In this document: one piece after another, positions 1,487 through 30,170 of the stretch
How the letters are laid out: each line of letters begins with the position of its first letter
Numbering within the stretch: position 1 is the first letter of the stretch
NCBI GenBank assembly: GCA_947474755.1
Contig: CANJJE010000011.1
Coordinates: 30,983-94,982 of the forward strand
DNA length: 64,000 bases
Source of the DNA: Burkholderiales bacterium
GTDB taxonomy: Bacteria; Pseudomonadota; Gammaproteobacteria; Burkholderiales; Burkholderiaceae_C
Reading direction: 5' to 3'
Position numbers and translations under genes: made by a program
The notes under the pieces: model-generated
What the model saw: only the letters and a program-made list of their open reading frames with translations
Database searches by the model: none
Told to the model about the DNA's origin: nothing

Positions 1487-2692
1487 TCAGGCCGCCAGCG
1501 GCGGACGGGCTCGCCGCGCATGTGCCGCCAGCGCGGCAATGACCTGCGCGATGTCGTCATCGCTTTGTGCAGCGCTCAAACTGATGCGCACCAGGCTCAG
1601 ACCTGACGGCGTGGCCGGCGGAATCATCAGGTTGGTGTAGATGCCCGCATCCAGCAGGCTTTGCCACAGCGCCAGCGCATCGTCGCGAGAGTCGAAGACG
1701 ATCGCTGCAACCGGGCCGGGGGTCGTCGTGCCAAGCCGGTAGCCCAGCTTGTTCAACTCGCCGTAAACGCGCTCCGCGTGGCGCCACAGCCGAGCACGCA
1801 GATCGTGGCCCTGCAGCACTTTACGCAGCGCCTGATGCGTTGCGGCAATCACGGGCGGTGGCGGCGAGGCGGTGAAGATGTAGGGTCGGCTGACCATGCG
1901 CATGAATTCGACCTCTGCATGTCGGCCGAGGCAGAACCCACCAACGCCGCCGAGGCTCTTCGAGAAGGTGCCGACGATGAAGTCAACCTCGCCGAGCAGA
2001 TCCTGTGCTTCGCAAAGGCCCAGGCCGCGGGGACCGAACGCGCCGAAGGAATGGGCCTCGTCGACCAGCAGCCAGGCTCCGTGGCGCTTCTTGATCTCGA
2101 CGATCTCGCGCAGCGGCGCCCGGTCGCCCAGCGTGCTGTACAGGCTTTCGACGACGATCAACGTGCGGCTGGCGGCCTCACCCAAGCGCTCCAGACGTCG
2201 CTCAAGATTTTCAGCGTCGTTGTGGCGAAAGCGGATCGTCGTCGCATGGCTGAGCCTGCAACCATCGTGGATGCTGGCATGGCTGTCCGCGTCGACAAGC
2301 AGCGTGTCGCCTTCGCCAGCCAGTGCCGACAGCGTGCCGAGGTTCGCCTGATAGCCGGTCGAAAAGACGATGGCCGTCGGCCAGCCGAAAGCACTCGCGA
2401 GGGAGTGCTCCAGCGCCCTGTGGCCGGCATAGTTACCGCTGGCCATCCGCGAGCCCGTGGTGCCGGTGCCCAGAGACTCGATTGCCGATATCGCTGCAGC
2501 ACGACAGTCTGCGTCGTAAGTCAGGCCGAGGTAATTGTTGGTGCCAGCGAGAATTACACGGCGGCCATTGATCGTGGCAGAGGTGGCCGAATGCACGTCA
2601 TCCATCGGGGTGGCGATCGGGGCCACCCGGCTGTTTTCGGCCAAGCTGGCCGCGAGGCCGCGCTGAACGGCAAATTTATCGAGAAGACTCAC
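1487..2692 (-). CDS. PLP-dependent alpha-oxoamine synthase, serine palmitoyltransferase-like
   Basis: Motifs NNYLGL, STGYQANLG, LVDEAHSFG and GTFSKSLGGVGGF (PLP lysine) are present. The start is chosen at GTG 2692, which overlaps the ACP stop (GTGA). The longest ORF extends to 2728. Confidence 0.85.
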   Translation of the reverse strand: MSLLDKFAVQRGLAASLAENSRVAPIATPMDDVHSATSATINGRRVILAGTNNYLGLTYDADCRAAAISAIESLGTGTTGSRMASGNYAGHRALEHSLASAFGWPTAIVFSTGYQANLGTLSALAGEGDTLLVDADSHASIHDGCRLSHATTIRFRHNDAENLERRLERLGEAASRTLIVVESLYSTLGDRAPLREIVEIKKRHGAWLLVDEAHSFGAFGPRGLGLCEAQDLLGEVDFIVGTFSKSLGGVGGFCLGRHAEVEFMRMVSRPYIFTASPPPPVIAATHQALRKVLQGHDLRARLWRHAERVYGELNKLGYRLGTTTPGPVAAIVFDSRDDALALWQSLLDAGIYTNLMIPPATPSGLSLVRISLSAAQSDDDIAQVIAALAAHARRARPPLAA

Positions 2693-2982
2693 GGTGCGCC
2701 GCGCTTCAACTGGACGATGCCAGCACACAGTTCATCGATGGTTCGAGCCTGAGCCATCGTCTCCACGGGAATCGACAGGTCGAGCCGGTCTTCGATCTCC
2801 ATCACGAGGTCCATGACCTCGGCTGAATCCAGATCAGCCTCCTGAGCCAGATCGGCGTCTCCCCGGATCCCCGCCGAATCGGGGCGTATCACCCCCAACG
2901 CCTCCCGGATGGTCGACTCGACCGAGGCTACGGTTTCAGTCAAGGACGTGGACCCCACTGCAGTGCTGGACAAAGGATTCAC
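2689..2982 (-). CDS. acyl carrier protein (dedicated, cluster-associated)
   Basis: 97 aa and acidic, with a DLDSAEVMDLVMEIEDRL phosphopantetheine-attachment-type motif. ATGA overlaps the upstream FAAL stop and GTGA overlaps the downstream AOS start. Confidence 0.85.
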   Translation of the reverse strand: MNPLSSTAVGSTSLTETVASVESTIREALGVIRPDSAGIRGDADLAQEADLDSAEVMDLVMEIEDRLDLSIPVETMAQARTIDELCAGIVQLKRGAP

Positions 2983-4859
2983 GATGCTGCGTTCTCGACT
3001 TCAACAGGTGCACGCTTGGCATGGCCGACGAACCTGCCACGGCACTCCGTGGAACCCTCGGCACTTCGGCGCTCCAAGAACTCCTTGCGAGCGGTGCTGC
3101 GTGACAGCTTGCCCGACGATGTCCGGGGCAGGGTATGCGGCGGAACGAGTTCTATCAGGCAATGGATGCCAAACTCGACATGGATGGCCTGCTGGACCCG
3201 TTCGGCCAAGCTGGCCAGTTTGCGGGGATCGGCTTCTCGACATTGCACGACCAAAACTGCCAACTCACCTTCGTCGGGATCGGTGATCGAGAACGCCGAG
3301 GCATCGGTTGGCCGTACTTCAGGCTGCTGCTCGGCCAGGTGTTCCAGGTCCTGTGGCCAGATGTTTCGTCCCTTGATGATCATCAGATCCTTGGCGCGAC
3401 CGGTAATGTGCAGCGAGCCCTTGGCCTGATAGCCGATGTCGCCCGTGTCCAGCCAGCCGTCAGCCGACAGCACCTCGCGAGACGCGACTGGATTGCCGAA
3501 GTAGCCAGACATCAGGCTTGCGCCGCGCAGATGGATGCGGCCGCAACGACGCTCCGGCAAAGGTCGGCCACGTTCATCCCGGATTTCCATCTCGTAGCCT
3601 GGGAGTGGTTGGCCGCAATTGATGAAGGCCTTGCCTTTCGATGGTGTTCCTTCGGCCGAGACTGGAATGGCTTCGCCGTAATGCGCCAGTCGGTCGACAT
3701 CGACGATATCGCTGCCTGCGCCACCTTCAAGGGGCGCGAAGCTGACCGCCAATGAGCACTCGGCCATTCCGTAGCACGGCAGAAACGCCTTTTCATTGAA
3801 ACCCGCCGACGCCAGCACCCTCGCGAACTCGTGCAAGGTTTCAGGGTGAATCATCTCGGCACCGACGCCGGCCACTCGCCAGGCCGACAAATCGAGCGAC
3901 TCGGTGTCTGCCGAGCGCAGGCGTCGTGCGCACAGCGTGTAGCCAAAGGGCGGACTGAAAGACACCGTGCAACGGTTCAGCGACATCAGCTTGAGCCACA
4001 GACGAGGACGCATCGCGAAATCGCGTGTCGGCAGGTAATCGACCGAGCGCTGGGTAGCGACGCAGCCCAGCACGATACCGACCAGGCCCATGTCGTGATA
4101 GTAGGGGAGCCAGGAGCAGAAACGATCCTCGGGCGTCAACCGAAAGCCGTGGTTGAAGATGGCTTTCAGATTGGCCATCACAGCAGACTGCGTGATCATC
4201 GTGCCGCGAGGAAAGCGGGTGCTACCCGAGGTGTACTGCAGGTAGGCCAGCTCACCGGGCTCGGGCGGCCGCGGTACCGTGTCCAGAGCGGGCAGCACCG
4301 AGAAATCCTGCGCAGTGCCGACCAGCGTCAGCGACAGACCCTCGCTAGCCTCGCGCAGGAAGCCGACAAACTCTGGTGGCGCGAACGCGGCCACTGCCTG
4401 ACAGTCACGAACCAATTGACGCAGATGGCGGATGTAGGCCTCTCGCCCGCCCAGGTGCACCGCAGCAGGCAAAGGTACGGGTACCAGCCCGGCGTACTGA
4501 CAGGCGTAAAACATCACTGCAAAGTCGGGATGGGTGTGGGCAACAAGGGCCAGCCTCTCACCACGTCCCAGCGGGGCGAGGCGACGCGACATTTCGAGAG
4601 CGCGCGCGCGCAGTTCCCGGTAGGGAAGCGTGGAGACCAGCGCTCCACGGCCGTCGTAGTAGTTGAAGCCGGAATCGCCACCAGCAGCGTAATCAAGCGC
4701 CGCAGCAAGTGTCGGAAAGTCCGCACTACGCAGAGCAATGCCGCTCGCGGTCGGGGTCAAACTGGCGTGAAAAGGTGCAGCAGGATTCACTGGAAACACC
4801 TCTGACGGCCATGCCGGCCTCGCAAGTAATCTTTCAACCCTCACCCTTTCGTACTGCAA
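2979..4859 (-). CDS. fatty acyl-AMP ligase / acyl-ACP synthetase (adenylate-forming enzyme)
   Basis: Motifs YLQYTSGSTRFPRG, WLPYYHDMGL, GWLDTGDIGY and TSSGKLSR are present, with a FAAL-like N-terminus. The longest ORF starts at TTG 4859, there is no upstream ATG, and the exact start is uncertain. Confidence 0.85.
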   Translation of the reverse strand: MQYERVRVERLLARPAWPSEVFPVNPAAPFHASLTPTASGIALRSADFPTLAAALDYAAGGDSGFNYYDGRGALVSTLPYRELRARALEMSRRLAPLGRGERLALVAHTHPDFAVMFYACQYAGLVPVPLPAAVHLGGREAYIRHLRQLVRDCQAVAAFAPPEFVGFLREASEGLSLTLVGTAQDFSVLPALDTVPRPPEPGELAYLQYTSGSTRFPRGTMITQSAVMANLKAIFNHGFRLTPEDRFCSWLPYYHDMGLVGIVLGCVATQRSVDYLPTRDFAMRPRLWLKLMSLNRCTVSFSPPFGYTLCARRLRSADTESLDLSAWRVAGVGAEMIHPETLHEFARVLASAGFNEKAFLPCYGMAECSLAVSFAPLEGGAGSDIVDVDRLAHYGEAIPVSAEGTPSKGKAFINCGQPLPGYEMEIRDERGRPLPERRCGRIHLRGASLMSGYFGNPVASREVLSADGWLDTGDIGYQAKGSLHITGRAKDLMIIKGRNIWPQDLEHLAEQQPEVRPTDASAFSITDPDEGELAVLVVQCREADPRKLASLAERVQQAIHVEFGIHCLIELVPPHTLPRTSSGKLSRSTARKEFLERRSAEGSTECRGRFVGHAKRAPVEVENAAS

Positions 4860-5010: not shown

Positions 5011-6966
5011 TCACGCTGTAGTGGTATCCAGAAACTCCGCAAGTTGCTCCAGCGTTGGGTAGTCGAACAAGTCGGTGACTTGGACACGCTGCGGAAACTC
5101 TAGCTCTATCGCTTCGTGGATCCGAGCCAAAGTGAGCGAGTTGAGGTCAATTTCCAGCAAGTTGGTCTGAGGTGTCAGTTCTCGGCCGACGATGAAGCCC
5201 GCGCAGATTTGCTGCAATCGTTGCTCCGTCGAGGTTCCCGTGCGTTGCTCGGCAACATTTCTTTGCGCAAGGAGCCGCTCAATTTCGGCCAGAGGTGCGT
5301 CGAATTCGCCCAGTTCGAACGCCTTGGCGAGCGCATAACGCTGTAATTTGCCGCTGCTGGTCTTCGGGATTTGCCGCACGGGCACCACATGTGCAACCTC
5401 CAGGCCGGTTTGCTGCAGCATCCTGCGCCGCAGTTCGATCACCTTGGGCAGGAACTCGGCGACCCCCGCCCTGTGAATCACGAAGAAGGCCAACTCCTCG
5501 GTATCAGCCACCGGGCCGCGCACGCCTGCTGCGGCGACGCGGTTGGCTTCAATATCGACGACCTCCGCCGCGATCCGTTCCAGATCGTGAGGGTAGTGGT
5601 TCTGCCCGTTGATGATGACCAGATCCTTCTCTCGCCCGGCTATGACCAACTGGCCTTCCAAGATGAAGCCCAGGTCGCCAGTCGCCAACCAGCCGTCGGC
5701 CGAGATGATCTCTGCGCTTCGCGCTGGATCTCGGAAATAGCCTGCGGTGACGTTGTCGCCGCGGATCAGCAAGTGACCCAGCATGCGCTCACCAAGTGTT
5801 TGCCCGGTCTCATCGACGATACGCAACTCGACCCCGCTCAACGGCAATCCGAGCTTGACCAGTTCGGATACCCGGCCGCCATTTTGTGCTTCGTGGCGCA
5901 CTGGCTCGCCGACGCGCAGCCGGGTTGGGTCGACGACGACGGTTTCGAGGGGGGTGCCGCGCATTGCGAAGCTGACAGCCAGGCTCGCTTCGGCAAGACC
6001 GTAGACGGCAAACATGGCGCTTGGCTTCAGGCCGTGGGGTGCCATCGTGCGCATGAAACGGCGGCAGACTTCCGCCGAGATCGGCTCCGCCCCGTTGAAG
6101 ATCAGTCGCACCGATGACAGGTCCAGGCCCTGCGGTGGTCGATGTGCGTACTGGCGAAGGTAGTGCTGGAAGCCGAAGTTCGGCGAACACAGCACGGTAC
6201 AGCGCCGCTGGCTGGCCAGATCCAGCCACAACAGCGGGCGCCGTGCGAACAGCTCGGTGCGCATGATCGCGTGGTTGATGCCGCTGGCCAGCTGGGTCAG
6301 GTGAAAGCCGATCAGCCCCATGTCGTGTGACAACGGCATCCAGCTCAGCACCGAGTCCTGGTCGGTGAAGGCGGCGCCTTTGATGATCGAGGCGATGTTC
6401 GCCGTGAGGTTGCGGTGCGTGAGCATCACGCCCTTCGGGTCGCCCGTCGAGCCCGATGAATACTGGATGAACGCGAGGTCCCTCGGATCAGGGTTCACCG
6501 GCACGCCTGGCTCGCCGGTGATGTCCAAGGCTCCCACGATCATCGTGCGCGCGCGAAGCTGCTGCCCTTCGTTGTCCAGGCGGTGTGTTGCGATGAAGTC
6601 GTCGAGGCGGTCCAGCGTCGGGGCGTCGATGCAGACCCGTGATTCATCGAGTTGTGCAAACACCCGCAGCAGCTTGCGCCAGTGTTCGTCTGCGACACCT
6701 GGTGCCAGCGGCACCGCCACGATGCCGCCGAGCACGCACGCCCAGAACATCTCCACGAAGCGTTCGTTGTCAGCAATGAACAGGATCAGCGTATCGCCAC
6801 GTTTGAGGCCATGGCGTTGCAGCGCGCCCAGCGCGCCAATGGCGCGCTGGCGCAGTCGCCGGAAACTCATCGTGCGCTGCTCGTTCTCGCCCTCGATGAA
6901 GGTGATCTGTCGATCCTCGCGCACGTCGGCCGGCAAGATCGCGTTGAGTGTCTCGAAGGGCAGCAT
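5011..6966 (-). CDS. fatty acyl-AMP ligase fused to a C-terminal carrier-protein (ACP/PCP) domain
   Basis: Motifs FIQYSSGSTGDPKG, WMPLSHDMGL, GWLATGDLG and TSSGKLQR are present. The C-terminal ~80 aa contain IDLNSLTLARIHEAIELEF (carrier Ser motif). The start is taken at the internal ATG 6966 (MLPFETLN), 11 nt after the P450 stop. The upstream extension to 7140 overlaps the P450 gene. Confidence 0.85.
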   Translation of the reverse strand: MLPFETLNAILPADVREDRQITFIEGENEQRTMSFRRLRQRAIGALGALQRHGLKRGDTLILFIADNERFVEMFWACVLGGIVAVPLAPGVADEHWRKLLRVFAQLDESRVCIDAPTLDRLDDFIATHRLDNEGQQLRARTMIVGALDITGEPGVPVNPDPRDLAFIQYSSGSTGDPKGVMLTHRNLTANIASIIKGAAFTDQDSVLSWMPLSHDMGLIGFHLTQLASGINHAIMRTELFARRPLLWLDLASQRRCTVLCSPNFGFQHYLRQYAHRPPQGLDLSSVRLIFNGAEPISAEVCRRFMRTMAPHGLKPSAMFAVYGLAEASLAVSFAMRGTPLETVVVDPTRLRVGEPVRHEAQNGGRVSELVKLGLPLSGVELRIVDETGQTLGERMLGHLLIRGDNVTAGYFRDPARSAEIISADGWLATGDLGFILEGQLVIAGREKDLVIINGQNHYPHDLERIAAEVVDIEANRVAAAGVRGPVADTEELAFFVIHRAGVAEFLPKVIELRRRMLQQTGLEVAHVVPVRQIPKTSSGKLQRYALAKAFELGEFDAPLAEIERLLAQRNVAEQRTGTSTEQRLQQICAGFIVGRELTPQTNLLEIDLNSLTLARIHEAIELEFPQRVQVTDLFDYPTLEQLAEFLDTTTA

Positions 6967-8309: not shown

Positions 8310-9014
8310 ATGCGCACGACAAGTGCCCCTGCGATGACCGTGTCGGTGCTGATCACCTCTGAGTTCGTGTTGTGGCCCGCGCTCGAATCGCAGTGGCTGG
8401 CGAGCCTGCCGTCGCCGCGGCGCCTGCAGATTGGCGCTTGGCCCGACGCGCAAGCGCGCCATCGCTCCCTGGTCGGCAGCCGCCTTCTGGTTCATGGGCT
8501 GCGGCGACTGGGGTACGGGGACGACGCACTGGCCACGCTGCGCTATCCAACGAATTCCCGACCGACGCTGGCATTGCCGGTCAGCTTCAGCCTGTCCCAT
8601 TGCGATGGACGCATCGTCTGTGCGCTGTCAACGCAGGGTGCGGTCGGCATCGATGTCGAGGCGCTGGGGGGTCTGGTCGCTGGAGACTTCCATCTGTACC
8701 TCAGTGCCGCCGAACGCGCTTGGGCCGGGCGCAGCACACGCCGTTTCTATTCGGTGTGGACCCGAAAGGAGGCCGTGGCCAAGGCGGCCAGCCAGAGGGG
8801 TCTGCGCGATGTGGCTCGGGTCGACACGACACACGGTGAGAACCTCGCTGCCTTTGCCGGAAGCCTGTGGCATACCGCCAGCGTGCCCGTTGGCCGGCGC
8901 CACGTGGCCCATCTGGCGCTGGCCGAGGCGCCTCGCCAACTGAGCTTTCATCGACTGGCCAGGTCGGTGTTGGAGCGCGACATGGCGGTCACGGAATCCG
9001 AGGCGGTACGGTAA
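8310..9014 (+). CDS. 4'-phosphopantetheinyl transferase (Sfp type)
   Basis: Motifs FSLSHCDGRIVCALS, GIDVE and FYSVWTRKEAVAKA are present. It is divergent from the P450 gene. ATG 8310 or 8334 is the likely start, and the 516-aa track ORF is an artefactual extension. Confidence 0.8.
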   Translation: MRTTSAPAMTVSVLITSEFVLWPALESQWLASLPSPRRLQIGAWPDAQARHRSLVGSRLLVHGLRRLGYGDDALATLRYPTNSRPTLALPVSFSLSHCDGRIVCALSTQGAVGIDVEALGGLVAGDFHLYLSAAERAWAGRSTRRFYSVWTRKEAVAKAASQRGLRDVARVDTTHGENLAAFAGSLWHTASVPVGRRHVAHLALAEAPRQLSFHRLARSVLERDMAVTESEAVR

Positions 9015-9052: not shown

Positions 9053-9829
9053 GTGAACAGACCCCATCGCGCGATCATCCTGAGTGCCGGACAAGGCAGT
9101 CGCCTGTTGCCCTTGACGGAGCAGATGCCGAAGTGCCTCATCGACCTAGGGGGACGCAGCATGCTTGAATGGCAACTGCGAGCGCTGGACCAAATGGGCG
9201 TCACCGAGGCCGTGGTGGTGACCGGTTTTTTCCCCGATCTGGTTGAGGCTGAGTTGAAGCGCCTGTCGCTCACGCAGTTGCGCGTACGCACGCTCTACAA
9301 CCCGTTCTACAAGCTGGCCGACAACCTCGCGAGTTGCTGGATGGCGCGCGCCGAGCTCAGCGGGCCGTGCATGATCCTCAACGGCGACACGCTGTTCGAG
9401 CCGGAGATTGCGGGCCGCTTGCTGGCCGCGCCCAGCGCACCCATCACGGTCACCATCGACCGCAAGGCGGCTTACGACGCTGACGACATGAAGGTCGTGA
9501 CTGAGGGGAATCACTTGCGAGCGATTGGCAAGGCGCTGACCGCCGATCGGGTCAATGGCGAGTCGATCGGTTTTCTCCGATTCGACGCAGACGGCGCGGC
9601 CTTGTTCGTCGCCGAACTCGAACGCACGATGCGCACGCCCGAGGGCCCGGGCCTGTGGTACCTCTCAGCCATCAATCGCCTCGCCAACGCGGGTGCCGAT
9701 GTCCGGGTCGTCTCTATCGAAGGACTGCAGTGGGGCGAGCTCGATTTCCCGGCTGATCTGGTTCAGGTACGGGAATTGGCGGCGACCTGGAACGTCGCGA
9801 AGCAGTCGGCGCCGGCCACGGTCGCGTGA
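9053..9829 (+). CDS. sugar/alcohol-phosphate nucleotidyltransferase (NTP_transferase fold)
   Basis: N-terminal AIILSAGQGSRLLPLTEQMPKCLIDLGGRSMLEW (the G-x-G-x-R-L signature of cytidylyl/uridylyl transferases). A GTG start at 9053 is assumed. Confidence 0.75.
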   Translation: MNRPHRAIILSAGQGSRLLPLTEQMPKCLIDLGGRSMLEWQLRALDQMGVTEAVVVTGFFPDLVEAELKRLSLTQLRVRTLYNPFYKLADNLASCWMARAELSGPCMILNGDTLFEPEIAGRLLAAPSAPITVTIDRKAAYDADDMKVVTEGNHLRAIGKALTADRVNGESIGFLRFDADGAALFVAELERTMRTPEGPGLWYLSAINRLANAGADVRVVSIEGLQWGELDFPADLVQVRELAATWNVAKQSAPATVA

Positions 9830-9830
9830 G

Positions 9831-10607
9831 TCAACGGTTGGCCAGTTCGCGTGCCAACTCCAGGTCTGCGGGCTTGTCCACATCGACGGCGGCTCGCCCA
9901 TCTCGCATCGTGACGATCGCGAGCCGCGCGCCGCCAGCGAGTGCACCCAGCCGTGCGGTCGCAGCAGACAGCGTCAGTCGGCCCAAGCGGTAGCGCAGAG
10001 CAAACAGCCAGCCCAGGCGCCGCATCATCCGAAGCGGCTCCTTGCGATGGCGCTCCAGTTCGCGCCAGAGTTCAACCACCCCTGCGGCCGCGGGTCGCGC
10101 CATCAGGAACAGATTGCATCCGGAGTAGTCGCCATCGGCAAAGCGCAGCCAGGTGCGCCGCGTGTGAGGCGCTGCGGCCTCCACAGCAGCGCGTCCGGCC
10201 AGCGCGGCGGTGACATCGGCGTCAGCCGGGCAGGCGGCTAGAAATTCTGTGAGCCAGGCTGTCTCCAGCAGGGCATGGTCGGCGGTCGTCACCAGCAGCG
10301 GGGCGCCCAGGTCGGCAAGCGCCGCTGCCACGGTAGCGCTGGGGCCTGAGGCGGTGGCCATCGTCGACAGCGGCTTGCCGAGCAACTCGGGCTGCAGTTC
10401 GGGCAGATCACGCAGCAACTCCGGCCGCTCGATCGCAACGACGATGCGTGTGACCTCCGGCACTGCGGCAAGTGCTGCCACCACGCGTTCGATCATCGTG
10501 CGGCCGCCCACCTCGATGAGCGCCTTGTGGCTGACGCCCGCATGCGCTGCCAGCGGATCGCCGCTGGTGCGGGTGCCAGCCAGCACCAACGCTGTCAGCG
10601 GCTTCAC
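9831..10607 (-). CDS. MobA-like nucleotidyltransferase family protein
   Basis: N-terminal ALVLAGTRTSGDPLA...KALIEVGGRTMIERV. The GTG start overlaps the stop of the upstream gene (GTGA). It is tail-to-tail with the 9053..9829 gene, with a 1-nt gap. Confidence 0.65.
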   Translation of the reverse strand: MKPLTALVLAGTRTSGDPLAAHAGVSHKALIEVGGRTMIERVVAALAAVPEVTRIVVAIERPELLRDLPELQPELLGKPLSTMATASGPSATVAAALADLGAPLLVTTADHALLETAWLTEFLAACPADADVTAALAGRAAVEAAAPHTRRTWLRFADGDYSGCNLFLMARPAAAGVVELWRELERHRKEPLRMMRRLGWLFALRYRLGRLTLSAATARLGALAGGARLAIVTMRDGRAAVDVDKPADLELARELANR

Positions 10608-11734: not shown

Positions 11735-12945
11735 GCGATGGGCTTGGCTTGTACGGGGGCGAGGAAGCCCAGCCACAGCGTGCGGACGCTGTGCCAGACA
11801 AAGGTCAGTCCCTGCCATGCAGTAATGATGTACAGACCGGCGGAACCTTCGCCCACAAGCACGCTGAGCGCCATGATGGACATGGTGATGTTGCGCCGCG
11901 CGATGAAGCTACGCACCCACGCATCGAGTCGCGTTGCTGCATGCAGGGCGAAGCCAAGGCGATATTTGGCTATGCCAAGAACAATCCGGTCAGCTACATA
12001 AAACAGGGTCAGACAGATAGCAGCTTGATATATCGGGTCGCTTGTCGTCTGTGCGCCCAAACCCCAGGCGAACGCAAAGTACCAGAAGGGTGGGTGCACG
12101 ATGTCGGTGCCGTGATCCAGTGCATTGCCGATCTTCGAATCGGTCAAGGTCAATCGCGCCAGCTTGCCGTCGACGCTGTCGAGCACGCTCATGGCGTAGG
12201 CACAAAGGAAGCCGTACAGAAAGTGGCTGGTCATGAACAGCGGCACCACGGCAATGGCCAGCAGGATCGACACGATCGTCACCGTGTTGGGATGGATGCG
12301 CAGCCACACGCACAGGCGCACGAGCTGCCAGACGAGTGGCGGGTAGACATGGCGGGTCAACAAATCAGTTGAACCCTTGTAGTTGTCCCAGAACATCTGA
12401 CGCTGCAGGCGCTGGCGCGCATCGGCGTCGTGCACCGCGTAAATCCAATAGGGCAACGTGCGCCGCAGCTTGTTGATGTAAGCGGGGAACTTGGCTTCGT
12501 CGAGTGGCGCGATGCGCTCTGCTGCGACCAGGGCATCAGCTACTTCGCAGAGGCTTGCTGCCCCGGCAGGGATGGCGTCCCGCAATTCGGGCTGCAACAA
12601 AAGCACCACCGCTCGCTCATGCCCTTCTCCGCGCGTTGCCAGGCACGAGGACATGTCATCGGTGGTCAACAGGAAGTCGATCAGTCGAGGGTCGATCACA
12701 TTGGCGCCGTCGAGTGCGACGAGAGGCCCGTTGAGCAAAGCCTGGCGCAGGCGGCTGCCGAGCGCTGCGGTCGTGGTCTCGATCTGTGCGCCTGGCCAGG
12801 TCTTCGATGACGCGTCAGGCCCGGACAGCACGATGCGGGTGCCGTCCGCCACGCTGCCAACGCTGCGCCTCAATCGCTCGATCGGTGGGACGCCGAAAAG
12901 CGTTTCGGCCTGAGCCGTCGAGTGAGTATCGATCCAGAGATTCAT
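11731..12945 (-). CDS. CDP-alcohol phosphatidyltransferase family protein with ~190-aa N-terminal cytoplasmic extension
   Basis: Perfect family signature DSVDGKLAR-x8-G-x3-D-x3-D (DSVDGKLARLTLTDSKIGNALDHGTDIVH). The ATG at 12945 overlaps the LptG-like stop (ATGA). It is a paralogue of 16784..17896. Confidence 0.85.
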   Translation of the reverse strand: MNLWIDTHSTAQAETLFGVPPIERLRRSVGSVADGTRIVLSGPDASSKTWPGAQIETTTAALGSRLRQALLNGPLVALDGANVIDPRLIDFLLTTDDMSSCLATRGEGHERAVVLLLQPELRDAIPAGAASLCEVADALVAAERIAPLDEAKFPAYINKLRRTLPYWIYAVHDADARQRLQRQMFWDNYKGSTDLLTRHVYPPLVWQLVRLCVWLRIHPNTVTIVSILLAIAVVPLFMTSHFLYGFLCAYAMSVLDSVDGKLARLTLTDSKIGNALDHGTDIVHPPFWYFAFAWGLGAQTTSDPIYQAAICLTLFYVADRIVLGIAKYRLGFALHAATRLDAWVRSFIARRNITMSIMALSVLVGEGSAGLYIITAWQGLTFVWHSVRTLWLGFLAPVQAKPIA

Positions 12946-14006
12946 GGGCGCTCGCACGCCCGCAGGCGCCACAGTCCGATTGAGATGAACAACAAAGGGG
13001 CCGCCAGCGCTGTGACCGGTGGCGGAAGCTGGCCACTCGACCCCAGCGAGGCGACGACGCCATCAAACAGCAAGAAGCCCAGACCCAGCGCCAAGGAGAT
13101 CAACATCGTGCTGCCGCCGGCATCACCGCGGGTGAGCGTGGCGGCTGTCGGCAGGGCCAGCAGCAGCATGATGAACACCACGAGCGGCGCCGCGAACGAT
13201 CGGTACAAGGCGGTTTGGTAGTAGCTCAGGGGTTGTGATCCCACGCGCGAACCCACGATCACATCGGCGAGCATGATAGTGGAGAGGTAAGGACGGGCCA
13301 CGCCAAGGCGCAGCACCTCCTCCGGATGGAGGTTGGTCTGCCAAACCAGTGTGTCGTCATGAATCCGCCGGACACCAGACGGCTCGACGAGCAGTTCTGT
13401 CACGTCCTGCAATTGCCAGGCCTGACCATCCCACCGCGCGCTGGCCGCTCGCACGCGTGAGGTCAGCAGCCCCGCCTCGCTGGCGTAGACGCGTATGCCC
13501 TTCAACTGCAGCCCGTCCGGGCTGATGCTGTCGATCGACACCAGTCCACCACGTGTGTTCGCCCACAGCGGCTTCTTGACCTCTTCGGCGGGTGCGCTCG
13601 CGTTCCACCACTGCTTCAAGGCGATCTCGGCGCGCGGCAGGACCAGTTGCACCAGAGCCACCTGGAAGAGGGTGAAGACCAGCAACACGGGCAGCAGATA
13701 AGCCAGCATGCGCGTGAAGCTGACCCCGCAGGCGCGCATGGCCGAGATCTCGATCGTGCGCGCCATCGCATTCAGCGAAGTCATTGTTCCCAGCAGTACA
13801 GCCAGGGGCAACGCGAGCCCCAGCTCTGCCGGCAAGCGCAGCATGGCGTAATAGAGCAGGCCGCCGAAGCCTTGGCCGCGTTCGAAGATGTCGGTGGTGA
13901 CGTCGAGCAGTTCGAGCAACTGCATCATGGCCGTCAACACCGCCAGCATGGCCAGGATCTGCGTGCCGACACGGCGGCACAGGTACGCCTGCATCGTGCC
14001 GATCAT
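12942..14006 (-). CDS. LptF/LptG-family (YjgP/YjgQ) permease, LptG-like
   Basis: 354 aa. The N-terminus (YLCRRVGTQILAMLAVLTAMMQLLELLD) and MRACGVSFTRML are typical of the LPS export permease family, with six predicted hydrophobic segments. Confidence 0.8.
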   Translation of the reverse strand: MIGTMQAYLCRRVGTQILAMLAVLTAMMQLLELLDVTTDIFERGQGFGGLLYYAMLRLPAELGLALPLAVLLGTMTSLNAMARTIEISAMRACGVSFTRMLAYLLPVLLVFTLFQVALVQLVLPRAEIALKQWWNASAPAEEVKKPLWANTRGGLVSIDSISPDGLQLKGIRVYASEAGLLTSRVRAASARWDGQAWQLQDVTELLVEPSGVRRIHDDTLVWQTNLHPEEVLRLGVARPYLSTIMLADVIVGSRVGSQPLSYYQTALYRSFAAPLVVFIMLLLALPTAATLTRGDAGGSTMLISLALGLGFLLFDGVVASLGSSGQLPPPVTALAAPLLFISIGLWRLRACERP

Positions 14007-14046
14007 CGGCAGTCCCTGGCCGCGCGGGCGCGCGATAGCTGCGTGT

Positions 14047-15252
14047 TCATGGGCTGCGCGGTGCGCGGCGGCGCGCCCGGGTTCGGGTGCGGTCGATCAG
14101 CGCTTCGATCGCCATCACCGCGCGCAGCACCGGGTTGTCTCCTGGCCACGCCAGGCTGCTCCGGAATATCCAGACACTCAGCACGGCGAAGACGACGAAC
14201 GGCGTCCACACCGCTGCAGCAGGTGGAAGACGGCCTGATTGACCGAGACTGGCGCCCAGCTGGATCGCGTGATCGAGGCTCAGCAAGGCCACCGTGGCGA
14301 ACACCACGCCAGGCGTGCGGCGTCCCCGTTTGGATGCCATGCCCAGCGGCAATGCCAACAGGGGCAGGAACGGGAAGATGCACGCCCGCGCCAGCCGATT
14401 GTGAAACTCCGCAGCAGGCTTGGTCTGGTAGCCGTTCTGGTGCATGGTGTGCCAAAGCTCGGCCAGAGTCAGTTCGCGTACCGATCCGCCCCGCTCGGCG
14501 AGCGGCTCAGCCTTGGGCGAGAAGTCCCGGTCGGTCGCGCCCTGCACGAAACGAGACAGCGAGACGGCCGCACCGTCCTCCTTCGTGCCTTCGCTCACCC
14601 GCAGGACCAGCCCGTCTTCGAAACGCATCCGCAGCCCATCTGGCGTCGGGACCAGTCTGCCGCGAGCGGCTGTCAGCACGTCTTCGCTGTGGGCGCCACG
14701 TCGCTCCATGAACACGCCGCGCAGGCTCCTGCCATCAGGTTCGATCACCTCGGCGGTGAAGGTGACCCCGTGCCCGATGTCGACGAACCGGTTTTCTTCG
14801 ACACGCGAATCCCAGCCTGTCTGCAGCACCCGATTCACTACCACGTTGTAGCCGTAGCGTGCCATCGGCTGCAACTGGCCGTAGAGATACAGGCTGAACA
14901 TCGCCAGCAAAACGGCGAGGACGAAATAGGGTGCAGTGATGCGGGCGATCGATCGGCCGGTGACCAGCATCACATCGAGCTCGTTGTCATCGCACATGCG
15001 AGCGGCGGCCATGAAGATCGCGGCCGTGAAAGCCATGGGCAAGGCCAGACCCAGGTAGTGCGGAACCAGCGTTGCCGCCATCACTAGCACGATCGATGGC
15101 GGGGCACCGGCGGAGGCTGCCAGGTCAAACAATCGCAGCAGCCGTTCGAGGAGCTGTGCAAGAAGCAGCGCCAGTAGCGCCAGCGCCAGCGGACCGGCGA
15201 TCAGGCGCAGCGCGTAGCGGTCGAGTCGGTCGAAAGCAAACCAGGGACGCAA
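14047..15252 (-). CDS. LptF/LptG-family permease, LptF-like
   Basis: Contains FDRLDRYALRLIAGPLALALLALLLAQLLERLLRLFD and VMLVTGRSIARI. The start is uncertain: TTG 15252 lies 5 nt after the HIT stop, and the longer ORF to 15339 overlaps the HIT gene. Confidence 0.75.
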   Translation of the reverse strand: MRPWFAFDRLDRYALRLIAGPLALALLALLLAQLLERLLRLFDLAASAGAPPSIVLVMAATLVPHYLGLALPMAFTAAIFMAAARMCDDNELDVMLVTGRSIARITAPYFVLAVLLAMFSLYLYGQLQPMARYGYNVVVNRVLQTGWDSRVEENRFVDIGHGVTFTAEVIEPDGRSLRGVFMERRGAHSEDVLTAARGRLVPTPDGLRMRFEDGLVLRVSEGTKEDGAAVSLSRFVQGATDRDFSPKAEPLAERGGSVRELTLAELWHTMHQNGYQTKPAAEFHNRLARACIFPFLPLLALPLGMASKRGRRTPGVVFATVALLSLDHAIQLGASLGQSGRLPPAAAVWTPFVVFAVLSVWIFRSSLAWPGDNPVLRAVMAIEALIDRTRTRARRRAPRSP

Positions 15253-15256: not shown

Positions 15257-15715
15257 TCAGCCCGTTTGCCGCACCCAGGCGTCTCGCAACTGCGCCAGCA
15301 GCGCGTCGCTCGTGGCGGTATCGGGTGCCACCGCGGCATCGAGCATCGGTGGGCCGGGCCAGCCAGCGTCCGGGAAATCGGTGTTGCCGAAGCGGCGCGA
15401 GCCTTCGTAGCGCGGGATCACGTGAAAGTGCACGTCCGGGTCGACCATCATCAGCATCAGGTAGTTGATCCGCTCGTATCGCACGACATCGCGCAGCGTG
15501 CCCTCGATGCAGCGCACCACATCACGCATCTCGGCGTAGGCCTGAGGACTCACATCGGCAAACGCGCGCACAGGCTCGCGACAGATCAGCACCAGCGAGC
15601 CCAGCGCGGGCTGCTTCGGGCGCAGCAGGACGGTCCAGCGATCAGTCTGAGCGACTCGTGAGGCCGGGTCACCGAACTTGATCTCGGTGGCCGTCTTGGG
15701 TGCAGCATCAGCCAT
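15257..15715 (-). CDS. HIT (histidine triad) family protein
   Basis: Histidine triad DVHFHVIPRY. ATG at 15715. Confidence 0.8.
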   Translation of the reverse strand: MADAAPKTATEIKFGDPASRVAQTDRWTVLLRPKQPALGSLVLICREPVRAFADVSPQAYAEMRDVVRCIEGTLRDVVRYERINYLMLMMVDPDVHFHVIPRYEGSRRFGNTDFPDAGWPGPPMLDAAVAPDTATSDALLAQLRDAWVRQTG

Positions 15716-15734: not shown

Positions 15735-16658
15735 TCACGGGTGTTGATTATCTCCTGCGGTCATGGCGCGGATCCCCGGCAGGCTCAGCTCGTAGACGCT
15801 GTCTGTCTTGAATGCCTGGTCCGAGACCGACCATCGCCGCACGGTGACTTCGATCCTGCGCTCGCCAGCACCGCCGACCAGTCGCAGCCGGTGCCAGCGT
15901 GCGCCCTCGTCCTGCGGATTGGGCAGCGCCGTGGACGACGGAACGCACAGGCAGGGAATCGACCCGCTCGGCCCCGCGATCGTGTCCAGCCGCGCGCTGC
16001 GAGCGTGTCCGTGCAGGACGAGCTCGGCCCCGGTACGACGGAGCACGGCGCGCAAGTCGTCACCATCAGCGAGCGCCTTGCGCCAGCCGATGGCCCCGGC
16101 TGCCGCGGGATGGTGCAGCATCACGATGCGCACCTGCGCCGCATCACCTTCAGCACGGAGTGCCTGTTCGAGACGTGCAAGTTGATCGGTACCCAGGCGG
16201 CCCCGCGCCAGCAGCGGTGCGGTCGGTAGCGCCGAATTCAGGCCGATCAGCGAGACATCGCCCAAGCGATGCACGAACGGCCAGCCTTCCTGCAGTCGCG
16301 TCCAGCGGCTCCACAGGCCGAGGCCTTCAGCGGCAGGCACGGGCACCAGCGCGTCGTGGTTGCCGGGGACCAGGCTGATGCGCTCGGCTGGCACCAGCGC
16401 TGCCAGCCACTCGGCGGCTTGCCGGAATTCGCCGGGCAGCGAGAAGTTGGTGATGTCTCCGGTGATCAGCACCTGGTCGACCGCGTGGGCGCGCAGGTCC
16501 TGCGTCAAGGCGTCCAGCACATCGCCGCTTTGCACCGCGTGGCGCTTTTGCCAGGACCAGACGCTGAGCTGCCGCTTCGAGAACCGCTGGCGCCAGCTCA
16601 GATGCGGCTCGAAGGGCAGGTGCAGGTCGGAGATGTGGCCGAGCGTCAAATCGCTCAT
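15735..16658 (-). CDS. metallophosphoesterase (calcineurin-like)
   Basis: Motifs HISDLH, ITGDITN, VPGNHD, MLHHP and VLHGHAR are present. The start is taken at the internal ATG 16658 (MSDLTLGH). Confidence 0.8.
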   Translation of the reverse strand: MSDLTLGHISDLHLPFEPHLSWRQRFSKRQLSVWSWQKRHAVQSGDVLDALTQDLRAHAVDQVLITGDITNFSLPGEFRQAAEWLAALVPAERISLVPGNHDALVPVPAAEGLGLWSRWTRLQEGWPFVHRLGDVSLIGLNSALPTAPLLARGRLGTDQLARLEQALRAEGDAAQVRIVMLHHPAAAGAIGWRKALADGDDLRAVLRRTGAELVLHGHARSARLDTIAGPSGSIPCLCVPSSTALPNPQDEGARWHRLRLVGGAGERRIEVTVRRWSVSDQAFKTDSVYELSLPGIRAMTAGDNQHP

Positions 16659-16783: not shown

Positions 16784-17896
16784 ATGCCAGAGCGCCGTAC
16801 GGCCGGCATCGTCGTCGGTGAGTCGCCGCTGCGTCTGTGGGGTCTCACCTCGACCCAGCGGCTGCAACGGCAGTTCGCGCGCGCGCAGGCCACTGCTGAT
16901 GCGCACGACGCGAAACGATGGGTGCTGGTGCGCGCCGACTGGGTCTACGACGACGCCTTTGTGCGCAGTCTCGCCTCGGCCGATGAAGACCTGGCGCTGA
17001 CTGCACCCGATGGGGGCGTCATCGCCCTGAGCCTGTCGGCCGCGTCACCGTCGGCGACCGAAGCATCGGAGATGCTGGCGGACCGGCGCGCGCCACCCGG
17101 CGCTCGCCTCGTGACGCCTGCGCAATTGGCCGATGGATACAACGACGTGCTGCGCAAGCGCGAGCCACCGTACCTGATCCCGCTGACGGCAGCCGAACTG
17201 CCCGCCATCGAGAAGCGCATCTTCGCGGGCTCCTACAAGGGCGTCACCGATGTGGTCACGCTGCGCGTCTGGCCCGCCCCCGCGCGGGCGGTGACGCGGT
17301 GGTGCGCCAACAACGGCATCTCGCCGAACCAGGTCACTTCGGCCAGCCTGGTGCTGGTCTTCGCGGCCATGTGGCTGTTCTGGACCGGTCACTACGGCTG
17401 GGGCCTGTTGGCGGCCTGGGTCATGACCTTCCTCGACACCGTCGACGGCAAGCTCGCCCGGGTGACGCTGACCTCGACCCGCTGGGGCAATGTGTTCGAT
17501 CATTCGATCGACCTGATCCACCCGCCCTTCTGGTGGTGGGCATGGATCGTGGGTCTGCCGGCCGCAGGGTTCAGCTTGACCCAAACCGGTCTGGTGCTGA
17601 CGGTGATCGTCGGTGGCTATGTGCTGCAGCGTATCGAGGAAGGCATCTTCATGGCCTGCTTCAAGATGGACATGCACGTCTGGCAGCGCTTCGACAGCTG
17701 GTTGCGCCTGTACACCGCCCGGCGCAATCCGAACCTGCTGATCCTGAGCGCTTCCCTGCTGGCCGGGCGTCCTGACATCGGCATCCTCGTGGTGGCCTGG
17801 TGGACGGCGATCTGTCTGTTCATCCATGCGCTGCGCATCGTGCAGGCGGCCTTTGCGCGGCGGCGCGGGCCACTGCGGTCGTGGTTGTCGGTGTGA
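16784..17896 (+). CDS. CDP-alcohol phosphatidyltransferase family protein with N-terminal extension (paralogue of 11731..12945)
   Basis: Signature DTVDGKLARVTLTSTRWGNVFDHSIDLIH. Its N-terminal region is colinear with the paralogue (LWGLTSTQRLQRQ versus LFGVPPIERLRRS). ATG 16784 is chosen, and the longest ORF starts at 16688. Confidence 0.85.
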   Translation: MPERRTAGIVVGESPLRLWGLTSTQRLQRQFARAQATADAHDAKRWVLVRADWVYDDAFVRSLASADEDLALTAPDGGVIALSLSAASPSATEASEMLADRRAPPGARLVTPAQLADGYNDVLRKREPPYLIPLTAAELPAIEKRIFAGSYKGVTDVVTLRVWPAPARAVTRWCANNGISPNQVTSASLVLVFAAMWLFWTGHYGWGLLAAWVMTFLDTVDGKLARVTLTSTRWGNVFDHSIDLIHPPFWWWAWIVGLPAAGFSLTQTGLVLTVIVGGYVLQRIEEGIFMACFKMDMHVWQRFDSWLRLYTARRNPNLLILSASLLAGRPDIGILVVAWWTAICLFIHALRIVQAAFARRRGPLRSWLSV

Positions 17897-21083: not shown

Positions 21084-21264
21084 GTGGTTTGGTCCTGCGA
21101 CAACATCTTCTGCTTCCTTCGACCCGTTTGTCTGAGGGTGGTGCGCCCCTGTGGTTGTCAATCGCCCCCGCCCTCGCGTTGCGCGATTCCTTGCTTGCGG
21201 CTCCCCTGCCGAGCGGCTCGCTTCGCGTCCCCGTCATCGACTCCGCGCTTCGTCCTCTGAATCC

Positions 21265-22383: not shown

Positions 22384-22396
22384 CGGTGGCGTTCCT

Positions 22397-25919: not shown

Positions 25920-26125
25920 CTGTCTACGCCGCTGGAGGGTGCCGGTGGTACCACGCACCGAGGAAACGCCCCAATCGCCGTCAATGGACGGTCAGTGGTA
26001 ACTCCCTGACTGTGCCGAAACGTAACGAATCATAACGACGCCCAGCACCAGCACCAGCGCCCAGCCCGCGGCGTGCCACCGGTAGGGGCGTTCAACGCAC
26101 GCAGCAGCCGCTGAACATTCGCCGA

Positions 26126-27118
26126 TCACAACCATGAGCGGGCCCGGTACCAGGCCACTGCGTCGGCAAAGCCCGTGTCGAGGTCGAACTGTGGCGCCCA
26201 ATCCGGTGCTGTGGCCAGCTCGCCGACAGATACCGACCAGTCTTCATGCCGCAGCTCGCGCAGTTTCTGTGAATTGAGCATGTTCGCCAGACCCAAGCTG
26301 CGGCCCGCGTCACCGACCAGCGCCACTGCCCGCAGCAGCGCCTGCGGTGCGTGTACCAACCGCGCACGTTCGTTGCCGACTGCCCGCGCCGCGGCACCCA
26401 GAACTTCGTGCCAGTGGTAGCCCTCAGGCCGTGCATCGGCAGCGGTCAGCACCTGCCCACGCGGTTGCAGGGTGGCCAGTCGCTCGATCAGGCGTACCAG
26501 ATCGTCGACATGGATCATCGCGGCGCGTGCGCTTGGCGATCCGAGCAGAGGCACCAGGCGTTGCCGGGCGAGTTGAAAGAACACCAGCGTTTCGCGGTCA
26601 CCCGGGCCGTACACCGCTGGCGGTCTCAGCACCGTGACGCGTTCGCCGAGCATCGCGCGCACCACATCCTCGCCTGCGCGCTTGCTTGCGGCGTAATCGG
26701 AGAGCTGCGGCTCGCGAGCGGCGAGGCTTGAGACATGCAGGAAGCGCGTGGCAGGGGCCACGCGCTGCACGGCCTCAGCAAGCGCCCGCGTGCCATCGCG
26801 GTTGCTCTTGAAGAATTCGGTTCGATCCGCAGCCTTGATGAGGCCTGCGACATGAATCACCACCCCTGCGCCATCGACCAGTCGCTCCAGGGCGGACGTA
26901 TTGGCCAGCGAGCCTGCCACCACCTGCGCTCCGTGGCCGCGCCACTCGCTGATGCTGGGCTCACTGCGCAACAGCAGCCGCACCGACCAACCCCGGCCGA
27001 TCAACATCCGTACCAGATGCTGACCGATGAAACCGCTGGCCCCGGTCACGGCGGCCAGCGGAGCAGTCTCACCCGTCTTCGTGATCAACATCGGCTGTAG
27101 GGGCTGCGAGGCAGTCAT
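26126..27118 (-). CDS. NAD(P)-dependent SDR-family epimerase/dehydratase/reductase
   Basis: Rossmann motif VTGASGFIGQHLV and a YAASK catalytic motif. Confidence 0.85.
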   Translation of the reverse strand: MTASQPLQPMLITKTGETAPLAAVTGASGFIGQHLVRMLIGRGWSVRLLLRSEPSISEWRGHGAQVVAGSLANTSALERLVDGAGVVIHVAGLIKAADRTEFFKSNRDGTRALAEAVQRVAPATRFLHVSSLAAREPQLSDYAASKRAGEDVVRAMLGERVTVLRPPAVYGPGDRETLVFFQLARQRLVPLLGSPSARAAMIHVDDLVRLIERLATLQPRGQVLTAADARPEGYHWHEVLGAAARAVGNERARLVHAPQALLRAVALVGDAGRSLGLANMLNSQKLRELRHEDWSVSVGELATAPDWAPQFDLDTGFADAVAWYRARSWL

Positions 27119-28085: not shown

Positions 28086-28111
28086 CCGCACGCGAGGCGT
28101 GCAGTCTGCGA

Positions 28112-29261: not shown

Positions 29262-30170
29262 TCAGTCAGTTGCAGCCATTGGAAACTTGCGCCACCGCCG
29301 GTGGTGCCAGCTCCACAGCTCCGGGTGTTGCAGCACCTGCGCTTCGGTCAGACGTGTCAGGAAATCCACATCGGCTTCCAGCGTCCCCTGTCCGATCGTC
29401 AGTTGTGGCTGGATTTCAAACCGCCATACCGGCTCTGCCCCCACTGCGACCATCGGCAGCACCGGCGAGCGTGAAACACGTGCCAGTTGAGCGGGGCCCG
29501 CAGGCATCGGCACGTCCTTGCCAAGGAAGCGCTGCGTGACGCCGTCCTCGGCCTTTCGCAGGCCTTGATCCATCATCAGGAACAGCACGCGGCCCTGCTT
29601 CAGCGCTGCCAGCATCTGGCCGTAGGCGCGAATGCCGCCATTGGCCAGGATGGCCTGGATGCCGTAATGCTCCAGGCCGGTCTGGAAGAAGCCGGTCGAC
29701 ATCATCCGAGCCTTGCGATACAGCAGCGACACCGGCCAGCCTTCCTGCGCCAGCCGAACCATCGCCAGACTGGCGTTGCCCATGTGGGTGGCCAGCACGA
29801 TCGCGCCACGCCCCTGGCTCATGGCCGCGCGCAGGTGTTCCAGGCCGCCCAGCTCGCAGCGCGCCGCCAGTGTGCTTTCGTCCTGGCGCTGGTCGAACAT
29901 CGCCATGACCTCCATCACTGCGCCGTTGTTCACCCGGTAGGCCTGGAGCAGCAGCGCGCGCACGGACGGGTCATGCGATGGTCGCCCCAGCACCTGGGCG
30001 ATCTCGCGCTGCAGTCGCTGGCGCTCTCGCCATCCGAACCAGAACTGCAAATCGCCCAGCCAGCTGCCGAGGGTGCGCGCATGCCGGAATCCGATGACGC
30101 GCAACAGCGTGCGCAGGCTGAGGAACATCGCGCGGCGACGCCGACGTCGCAGATCCCGAACCCAGTTCAT
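29262..30170 (-). CDS. LpxL/HtrB-family lipid acyltransferase
   Basis: Contains GAIVLATHMGNASLA, RKARMMSTGFF, MLAALKQGRVLFLMMDQG and the following GPAQLARVSRSPVLP. The family pattern is that of late lipid A acyltransferases. Confidence 0.75.
   Translation of the reverse strand: MNWVRDLRRRRRRAMFLSLRTLLRVIGFRHARTLGSWLGDLQFWFGWRERQRLQREIAQVLGRPSHDPSVRALLLQAYRVNNGAVMEVMAMFDQRQDESTLAARCELGGLEHLRAAMSQGRGAIVLATHMGNASLAMVRLAQEGWPVSLLYRKARMMSTGFFQTGLEHYGIQAILANGGIRAYGQMLAALKQGRVLFLMMDQGLRKAEDGVTQRFLGKDVPMPAGPAQLARVSRSPVLPMVAVGAEPVWRFEIQPQLTIGQGTLEADVDFLTRLTEAQVLQHPELWSWHHRRWRKFPMAATD

Follow-up and report, generated by a model that had tools for sequence, protein, structure and literature searches.

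An LptF/LptG-type permease pair in a Burkholderiales sphingolipid locus, most likely serving sphingolipid extraction

In this study we focus on two adjacent permease genes of the LptF/LptG type, here called lptF2 and lptG2, on a 64,000-nucleotide stretch of DNA from a Burkholderiales bacterium (assembly GCA_947474755.1, contig CANJJE010000011.1, positions 30,983 to 94,982), hereafter the window. Most likely they encode the membrane subunits of a second Lpt-type ATP-binding cassette (ABC) extractor that belongs to a sphingolipid locus and extracts that sphingolipid, a reading to which we give a probability of about 0.78. Judging by gene content, the 34 kb around the pair form a complete bacterial sphingolipid locus, with ceramide genes and the full set of head-group genes described for the Caulobacter CPG2 locus.

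The way in which bacterial sphingolipids are transported to the outer membrane (OM) was open until very recently, and the current answer comes from Caulobacter only. LptC2, LptF2 and LptG2 were named, and selective phosphosphingolipid transport was proposed, in 2024 (PLoS Pathog, PMC11324152). A 2026 preprint (bioRxiv 10.64898/2026.04.12.717747) reports that deletion of lptF2 and lptG2 in Caulobacter is possible only if spt or cpgB (ceramide kinase) is mutated, and that the two proteins are pulled down together, along with the sole LptB. The original prediction for this DNA, made from sequence, had stated that no Lpt-type extractor for a sphingolipid-like molecule had been described; these two reports already describe one. 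The concept is known, and what belongs to the window itself is a coupled CDP-alcohol transferase, a block of ABC exporter and LpxL-like genes, a group of three genes (fatty acyl-AMP ligase, or FAAL, with carrier domain, cytochrome P450 and phosphopantetheinyl transferase), a variable sugar module, and, in a relative, location on a plasmid.

Identity, fold and operon of the pair

Both products belong to the LptF_LptG family (Pfam PF03739), with E=2.2e-64 over profile positions 1-352 of 353 for LptF2 and E=9.3e-64 over nearly the full profile length for LptG2. The two proteins score 216.1 and 218.2 bits against a gathering cut-off of 27.9, and their E-values lie far beyond chance. The top matches among solved structures and NCBIfam models are LptF chains for the first product and LptG chains for the second, so that an F-type and a G-type subunit are encoded side by side. 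An AlphaFold (AF2) model, computed for LptG2 alone, has a pLDDT of 86.7 and superimposes on LptG of the E. cloacae and V. cholerae LptB2FGC complexes with a TM-score of 0.80-0.82. It is composed of helices (2-136), strands (147-222) and helices (260-352), giving six transmembrane (TM) helices and a short coupling helix, with a periplasmic beta-jellyroll domain inserted between TM3 and TM4. This architecture, the coupling-helix glutamate and the F/G heterodimer are shared with canonical LptB2FG(C) (PDB 6MIT, 6MHU, 6MJP). The pair differs from the canonical one in its low identity to E. coli LptG (23-26%), its scores below the NCBIfam cut-offs, its lack of a pepA neighbour, its accessory and mobile status, and its predicted substrate, a sphingolipid instead of lipid A.

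Compared with relatives of 91-94% identity, the ratio of non-synonymous to synonymous substitution rates (dN/dS) is 0.06-0.13 for lptF2 and 0.08-0.10 for lptG2, and both genes are thus intact and under purifying selection. Furthermore, single polypeptides of about 760 residues that fuse an LptF2-like and an LptG2-like half exist (P0121, of 759 aa, P0138, P0142, P0143 and others); P0121 is 60% and 62% identical to F2 and G2 of one related locus (L016). These fusions support the partnership of the two subunits. Long plus-strand open reading frames (ORFs) over the same DNA, such as 13647..14711, were discarded as high-GC artefacts.

The pair lies in a minus-strand operon with the order metallophosphoesterase, HIT, lptF2, lptG2, CDP-alcohol transferase, a 376-aa protein and NTP_transf_3 nucleotidyltransferase (Table 1). 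Gene calls and Pfam matches agree with the original prediction that an LptF/LptG-type pair sits within an operon of lipid head-group genes. Reading of the sequence also confirmed two junctions it had described: the lptF2 start lies a few nucleotides past the HIT gene (TGA at 15259-15257, TTG at 15252, a 4-nt spacer), and the lptG2 stop overlaps the start of the CDP-alcohol transferase gene (ATGA at 12945-12942). The gap between lptF2 and lptG2 is 40 nt, with AGGGA 8 nt ahead of the lptG2 ATG. Downstream, the gene for the 376-aa protein and the nucleotidyltransferase gene likewise each share 4 nt with the gene before them (ATGA at 11734-11731, GTGA at 10607-10604). Inside the operon, neither terminator-like nor promoter-like sites were found. 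Overlaps of 4 nt are ordinary operon features and are unremarkable alone.

The coupling to the CDP-alcohol transferase is real as an overlap, but it concerns a variable insertion. Some loci of Burkholderiales and Steroidobacteraceae carry this gene, but it is absent from L014, L015, L018, L021, L022 and all alphaproteobacterial loci; in these, which include Caulobacter and many close relatives, a bCerS-like gene directly follows lptG2. It is missing even where the LptG2 of a relative is 91% identical, and with a dN/dS of 0.13-0.23 it evolves faster than its neighbours. The 376-aa protein of the window is this bCerS-like product, whose identity is 53% to the gene right after lptG2 in C. segnis and 50-93% across related loci; in C. 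crescentus the gene in this position is cerS (CC_1154; PMC11324152). On the other side of the pair, the HIT-family gene is 52% identical to the 145-aa gene ahead of lptF2 in Caulobacter. Its counterpart CC_1157 was termed 'probably unrelated' (PMC11324152). We consider that the HIT gene probably belongs to the pathway, because most of the 80 related loci (see below) have it in this place and its sequence is more conserved than those of LptF2 and LptG2.

As a Caulobacter reference we used the C. segnis locus (L088, CP082923.1), reached via a Caulobacteraceae homologue, whose layout agrees with the published map of CC_1152 to CC_1165 in C. crescentus (PMC11324152). The window holds homologues of all 14 of these 14 genes, with identities to C. 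segnis of 27-66% (Table 1). Caulobacter LptF2 and LptG2 (CC_1156/CC_1155, that is CCNA_01214/CCNA_01213) are of the same family and in the same F-then-G order as the window pair. In both loci the pair stands between a metallophosphoesterase gene with a small HIT-like gene on one side and a bCerS-like gene with nucleotidyltransferase genes on the other, no ATPase gene is present, and the coupling-helix glutamate is retained. The window differs in the CDP-alcohol transferase inserted after lptG2 and translationally coupled to it, in the lack of LptC2 and of a CC_1166/CC_1167 counterpart, and in its additional genes: an ABCB-type exporter, an LpxL-like acyltransferase, the FAAL-carrier, P450 and phosphopantetheinyl transferase genes, and a sugar module of nonulosonic-acid type. 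Its host is a Rubrivivax-like member of the Burkholderiales.

Distribution and plasmid carriage

The distribution of the pair was scanned with a single peptide motif in one genome per species, over 185,579 species genomes. Relatives were found in 105 of them, and 80 loci were kept, each fetched as the match with 10 kb on either side; 31 window proteins were then compared with all loci by tblastn. Identities are 89-93% in Rubrivivax-like Burkholderiales metagenome-assembled genomes (MAGs), 70-76% in Rhizobacter and Methylibium, 56-59% in a few Variovorax, Curvibacter soli and one Janthinobacterium MAG, 42-56% in Nevskiales and Steroidobacteraceae, and 33-37% in Azospirillaceae, Stella, Roseomonas and Caulobacteraceae. 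For LptG2, the MAG chromosome OZ245872.1 reaches 93% identity to the window. The pair lies among spt-locus genes in 80 of the 80 loci. Among the alpha-, beta- and gammaproteobacterial loci whose order was read out, the arrangement metallophosphoesterase, HIT, lptF2, lptG2, (CDP-alcohol transferase), bCerS-like, NTP_transf_3 is kept in C. segnis, Stella, Nevskiales and Burkholderiales.

Two of the loci carry doubtful labels. L042 is titled 'Enterobacteriaceae' yet has a GC content of 72.8%; it was rejected as a bridge to E. coli since the label is probably wrong. L080, from a 'Hydrogenophaga intermedia' MAG, holds a locus of the alphaproteobacterial type and is probably mislabelled. A sphingolipid locus of E. 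coli UTI89 is shown in the preprint; when the lptFG region and spt were searched at the DNA level against all complete E. coli genomes, no match was obtained, the GC gap being too large for a DNA search.

One relative is plasmid-borne. The 77.6-kb conjugative IncP plasmid pDCB2 of Diaphorobacter sp. JS3051 (NZ_CP065408.1, locus L090) carries 23 of the window genes, including lptF2 and lptG2, with 52-78% identity. Its cargo is a locus of about 28 kb, complete for sphingolipid synthesis and export, at coordinates of about 9000-36700 and flanked by ars/mer genes on one side and a Tn3-family transposase on the other; the GC content of the locus is 0.695, against 0.634 for the backbone. The paper describing strain JS3051 makes no mention of a sphingolipid locus, and a literature search on plasmid-borne sphingolipid loci found nothing.

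Orthologous clusters were previously reported in N. eutropha, A. vinelandii and P. luteola, and the two gammaproteobacterial clusters were suggested to be horizontally acquired from an alphaproteobacterium (PMC11324152). As far as the description in that paper goes, these clusters resemble the window group (Burkholderiales, Nevskiales and Steroidobacteraceae) in carrying orthologues of CC_1155/CC_1156 without CC_1166 to CC_1168; the window group adds the ABC exporter and LpxL-like block and, in one case, location on an IncP plasmid. Tentatively, the locus in the three groups may be seen as a self-contained, horizontally mobile 'outer-membrane lipid cassette' that plugs into the LptB and the Lpt bridge of its recipient. 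Such a cassette might unite the ceramide and anionic head-group pathways with an ABCB-type flippase and an LptF2/LptG2 extractor of its own, and could possibly move on a broad-host-range IncP plasmid such as pDCB2. If this were true, a single transfer event would remodel the outer leaflet of a cell that produces lipopolysaccharide (LPS).

The pair is kept from Alpha- to Beta- and Gammaproteobacteria, is under purifying selection and stays linked to the biosynthetic genes, even where these are carried by a conjugative plasmid; all this favours a general validity of the LptF2/LptG2 model. Carriers that can be cultured and could serve to test it are Variovorax, Xylophilus, Curvibacter, Panacagrimonas, Solimonas and Diaphorobacter with pDCB2. 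For annotation, the NCBI pipeline PGAP calls the relatives 'LptF/LptG family permease', owing to scores below the equivalog cut-offs, and sometimes, wrongly, 'LptG'.

Proposed transport route and rival explanations

Residues E84 of E. coli LptF and E88 of E. coli LptG are the coupling-helix glutamates that contact LptB. Both align with a glutamate in the window proteins, and the position is conserved in 80 of 80 F2 sequences and in 77 of 78 G2 sequences (Glu86 in LptG2 of the window). Neither the window nor any related locus holds a stand-alone LptB-like nucleotide-binding domain or a dedicated ATPase for the pair. Since the locus has no such ATPase, the housekeeping LptB would power LptF2/LptG2; together with the conserved glutamate, this fits the co-purification of LptF2 and LptG2 with the single LptB in Caulobacter. 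Indeed, both the transport function of the window pair and its use of LptB are proposed by analogy with the published Caulobacter work.

The original prediction had made an MsbA-like exporter (30171-31940) part of the route. The gene does belong to the locus: it shares a 4-nt overlap with the kinase gene, is 64-72% conserved in the beta- and gammaproteobacterial loci, and is present on pDCB2, as is the whole ABC/LpxL-like block. The product is not MsbA: its 225.9 bits fall short of the MsbA equivalog cut-off of 602, and it matches generic PglK/ABCB-type exporters, so that on sequence grounds it is classed as a generic ABCB/PglK-like half-transporter. The beta- and gammaproteobacterial genomes examined were reported to be without LptC2 and without CC_1166, the candidate flippase of Caulobacter (PMC11324152). 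Because it is conserved in loci of this kind, the ABC/LpxL block is a reasonable flippase candidate.

Which lipid is carried, the function of the ABC protein as flippase, and the involvement of LptC, LptA and LptDE are our inferences. The route we propose is as follows. Ceramide would be made by serine palmitoyltransferase (Spt), acyl carrier protein (ACP), acyl-ACP synthetase, the CerR-like reductase and the bCerS-like acyltransferase. It would then be converted to an anionic phospho-sphingolipid of the ceramide-phosphoglycerate type by the products of the diacylglycerol (DAG)/ceramide kinase gene, the CC_1161-like gene, the two CDP-alcohol transferase and two nucleotidyltransferase genes, and the HIT and metallophosphoesterase genes, and probably be decorated further in this lineage. 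After a flip across the inner membrane, probably by the ABCB-type half-transporter of the locus, the LptF2/LptG2 heterodimer would pull the lipid from the outer leaflet of the inner membrane via its beta-jellyroll domains. Power would come from the housekeeping LptB, and the remaining Lpt bridge presumably carries the lipid to the OM. The private Lpt-type route for a non-LPS lipid of sphingolipid type that had been predicted originally is well supported by the Spt equivalog, the homologues of CC_1152 to CC_1165, the 80 of 80 loci, the scores below cut-off, the plasmid, and an ABCB-type exporter gene that is part of the locus.

Several points weigh against this assignment. LptF2 and LptG2 are only 40% and 35% identical to their Caulobacter counterparts, and LptG2 is the least conserved of the shared set except ACP and the kinase. 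The beta- and gammaproteobacterial loci would have to do without the LptC2 and CC_1166 of the Caulobacter system (PMC11324152). The presence of an LpxL-family acyltransferase and a nonulosonic-acid-type module means that the transported lipid may differ from CPG2. The Caulobacter transport evidence, which consists of genetics and pull-down only and comes from a preprint, would have to carry over from one organism of another lineage. Finally, strict orthology with the Caulobacter pair is unproven because the neighbour-joining (NJ) tree is star-like.

That these could be the sole lptF and lptG genes of the genome, a housekeeping LPS extractor merely located in an envelope-lipid locus, is very unlikely. 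Sole-copy cases do exist: Sphingomonas wittichii, which is free of LPS and contains glycosphingolipids, is reported to have only the pair of its sphingolipid genes (bioRxiv 10.64898/2026.04.12.717747). Its Lpt-type permeases lie beside sphingolipid genes, as in the window, but there is no second pair and the genes are spread around the genome, whereas the window pair is expected to occur alongside a housekeeping pair in a bacterium that makes LPS. PGAP also labels at least one alphaproteobacterial group member, P0131 of Indioceanicola, 'LPS export ABC transporter permease LptG'; this protein shares 68% identity with the copy in the Rhodocista spt locus and is probably mislabelled. The window proteins, for their part, lack the features of a canonical pair, namely scores above the equivalog cut-offs, a stand-alone position beside pepA and presence throughout LPS-producing lineages. 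LptF2 reaches 197 bits on TIGR04407 (LptF), below the cut-off of 230, and LptG2 228.9 bits on TIGR04408 (LptG), below the cut-off of 240. In the E. coli reference locus pepA is divergent from a stand-alone lptF-lptG pair; pepA stands beside the pair in 0 of the 80 fetched regions, and none is found in the window region. A housekeeping gene would be expected in every member of a genus, but relatives occur in 105 of 185,579 species genomes and in only a handful of species of Variovorax (five), Curvibacter and Janthinobacterium; this patchy occurrence in LPS-producing genera such as Variovorax also points to accessory status. The strongest evidence is the plasmid carriage of the same locus in Diaphorobacter. 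We therefore regard the pair as accessory, a judgement that draws on scores, gene context, distribution and the plasmid-borne relative.

The NJ tree agrees with this. Nine of the 150 best 50%-cluster representatives were E. coli-like, of which only Thiothrix carried a name; in the tree, E. coli LptG and the Thiothrix type form a separate clade, and the beta- and gammaproteobacterial copies group apart from it, nested among copies of the alphaproteobacterial type. The tree is poorly resolved, with canonical alphaproteobacterial LptG unlabelled, and is used only for the coarse split between the E. coli type and the beta/gamma copies. A second candidate clade of canonical LptG turned out to consist of Acetobacteraceae 'LptF/LptG family permeases'.

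It is improbable, if less so, that the pair is dedicated to extracting something else made by the locus, or else a modified LPS or lipid A species, for example a multi-acylated or nonulosonic-acid-bearing glycolipid made by the LpxL-like enzyme, the ELM1-like and GT1 glycosyltransferases and the NeuB module. Genes for LpxL-family, ELM1/GtrOC1-like, ABCB, NeuB-like and CMP-sugar synthetase/phosphatase proteins all lie in the 34-kb region, and residues facing the substrate cavity are unlike those of E. coli: the position of LptG R136 is Trp in 76 of 78 family members. (Differences at LptG K34, K40 and K41 were discarded as evidence, since these positions also vary among canonical representatives.) However, it is with spt, the bCerS-like gene and CPG2-type head-group genes that lptF2 and lptG2 occur in alpha-, beta- and gammaproteobacterial loci alike, while the LpxL-like and ABC genes are found only in beta- and gammaproteobacterial loci and the NeuB module only in a few close relatives. 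Moreover, the lethality of lptF2/lptG2 deletion in Caulobacter depends on spt and the ceramide kinase (bioRxiv 10.64898/2026.04.12.717747), which favours extraction of the sphingolipid. Decay or loss of function, the pair being a duplicate that merely rides along with the locus, is hardly credible; this reading has no specific support beyond the lower conservation of the pair compared with the neighbouring enzymes, and it is already contradicted by the intact reading frames, the dN/dS of 0.06-0.13, motifs invariant across 80 genomes, and conserved operon position and translational coupling.

Gene content of the locus and other features of the window

Table 1 Features of the sphingolipid locus (identities are to the C. 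segnis counterpart)
Feature	Position	Strand	Match or remark	Identity
Serine palmitoyltransferase (Spt)	1487..2728 (start uncertain)	minus	NCBIfam NF047599	50%
ACP	2689..2982	minus	ORF	31%
Acyl-ACP synthetase/FAAL, AasR counterpart	2979..4514	minus		45%
FAAL with carrier domain	5011..6966	minus	Pfam, NCBIfam; beta/gamma-specific	
Cytochrome P450	6978..8282	minus	Pfam, NCBIfam; beta/gamma-specific	
Phosphopantetheinyl transferase	8331..9014	plus	Pfam, NCBIfam; beta/gamma-specific	
Nucleotidyltransferase, CC_1152-like, convergent	9161..9829	plus	Pfam NTP_transferase; gene call from source contig	66%
NTP_transf_3 nucleotidyltransferase, CC_1153-like	9831..10607	minus	Pfam E=4.6e-13; last gene of operon	49%
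bCerS-like, 376 aa	10604..11734	minus	No Pfam match; counterpart of CC_1154	53%
Extra CDP-alcohol phosphotransferase family, 404 aa	11731..12945	minus	Pfam PF01066 E=1.7e-8; ATG overlaps lptG2 stop	
lptG2, LptG-type permease, 354 aa	12942..14006	minus	ATG 14006 to TGA 12942; Pfam, NCBIfam, AF2 model	35%
lptF2, LptF-type permease, 401 aa	14047..15252	minus	TTG 15252 to TGA 14047; Pfam, NCBIfam, structure matches	40%
HIT family, CC_1157-like	15257..15715	minus	Pfam HIT E=2.6e-5; directly upstream of lptF2	52%
Metallophosphoesterase, CC_1158-like	15735..16658	minus	Pfam Metallophos E=4.4e-13; first gene of operon	41%
CDP-alcohol transferase, CC_1159-like	16784..17896	plus	Pfam PF01066 E=1.4e-11; divergent from lpt operon	51%
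CC_1161-like protein, 315 aa	17893..18840	plus		44%
CerR-like NAD-dependent epimerase/reductase	26126..27118	minus	Pfam Epimerase E=9.9e-27	46%
LpxL-family acyltransferase	29262..30170	minus	Pfam; second operon, directly after ABC gene	
ABCB-type half-transporter	30171..31940	minus	Pfam; second operon	
DAGK family (ceramide kinase-like)	31937..33403 (start uncertain)	minus	Pfam; second operon	27%
Fatty-acid desaturase/hydroxylase	32941..34080	minus	Pfam; second operon	

The Spt of the window passes the equivalog for betaproteobacterial Spt (NF047599) with 570.6 bits, against a cut-off of 500. The counterpart of the CerR-like gene lies between AasR and ACP in Caulobacter. The FAAL-carrier, P450 and phosphopantetheinyl transferase genes are also present in Xylophilus and on pDCB2. 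A DUF3108 protein of the Xylophilus and pDCB2 loci was considered as a possible periplasmic partner and rejected, as the window lacks it and only a few loci, from Comamonadaceae and Janthinobacterium, carry it.

In the variable sugar module (19962-25958), a CMP-sugar synthetase is fused to a KDN-9-P/KdsC-type phosphatase; the module further encodes a GT1 glycosyltransferase, a NeuB-like synthase and a TIGR04396 surface-carbohydrate protein. This set suggests a nonulosonic-acid-type decoration of the lipid. The module is found only in some close relatives (L010, L012, L019, L020 and L030). The ELM1/GtrOC1-like glycosyltransferase gene is likewise within the 34-kb region. Two long ORFs overlap on opposite strands, at 27201-28085 (plus) and 27270-28523 (minus). 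The former, of 294 aa, is a real gene, 82% identical to an annotated pDCB2 protein; the latter, of 417 aa, was set aside as a high-GC artefact.

The GC content of the window is 65%, and its sequence matches without difference a segment of a 102.8-kb metagenome contig (ENA ERZ27277814). Elsewhere in the window, positions 44948-57747 (minus strand) encode a 2938-aa RTX-repeat protein with 15 matches to haemolysin-type calcium-binding repeats and a weak lipase_3 match. A gene for an HlyD-type membrane-fusion protein and an ABC nucleotide-binding domain at 56970-57524 lie near it. This region is a type I secretion system and has no relation to the lptF2/lptG2 finding.

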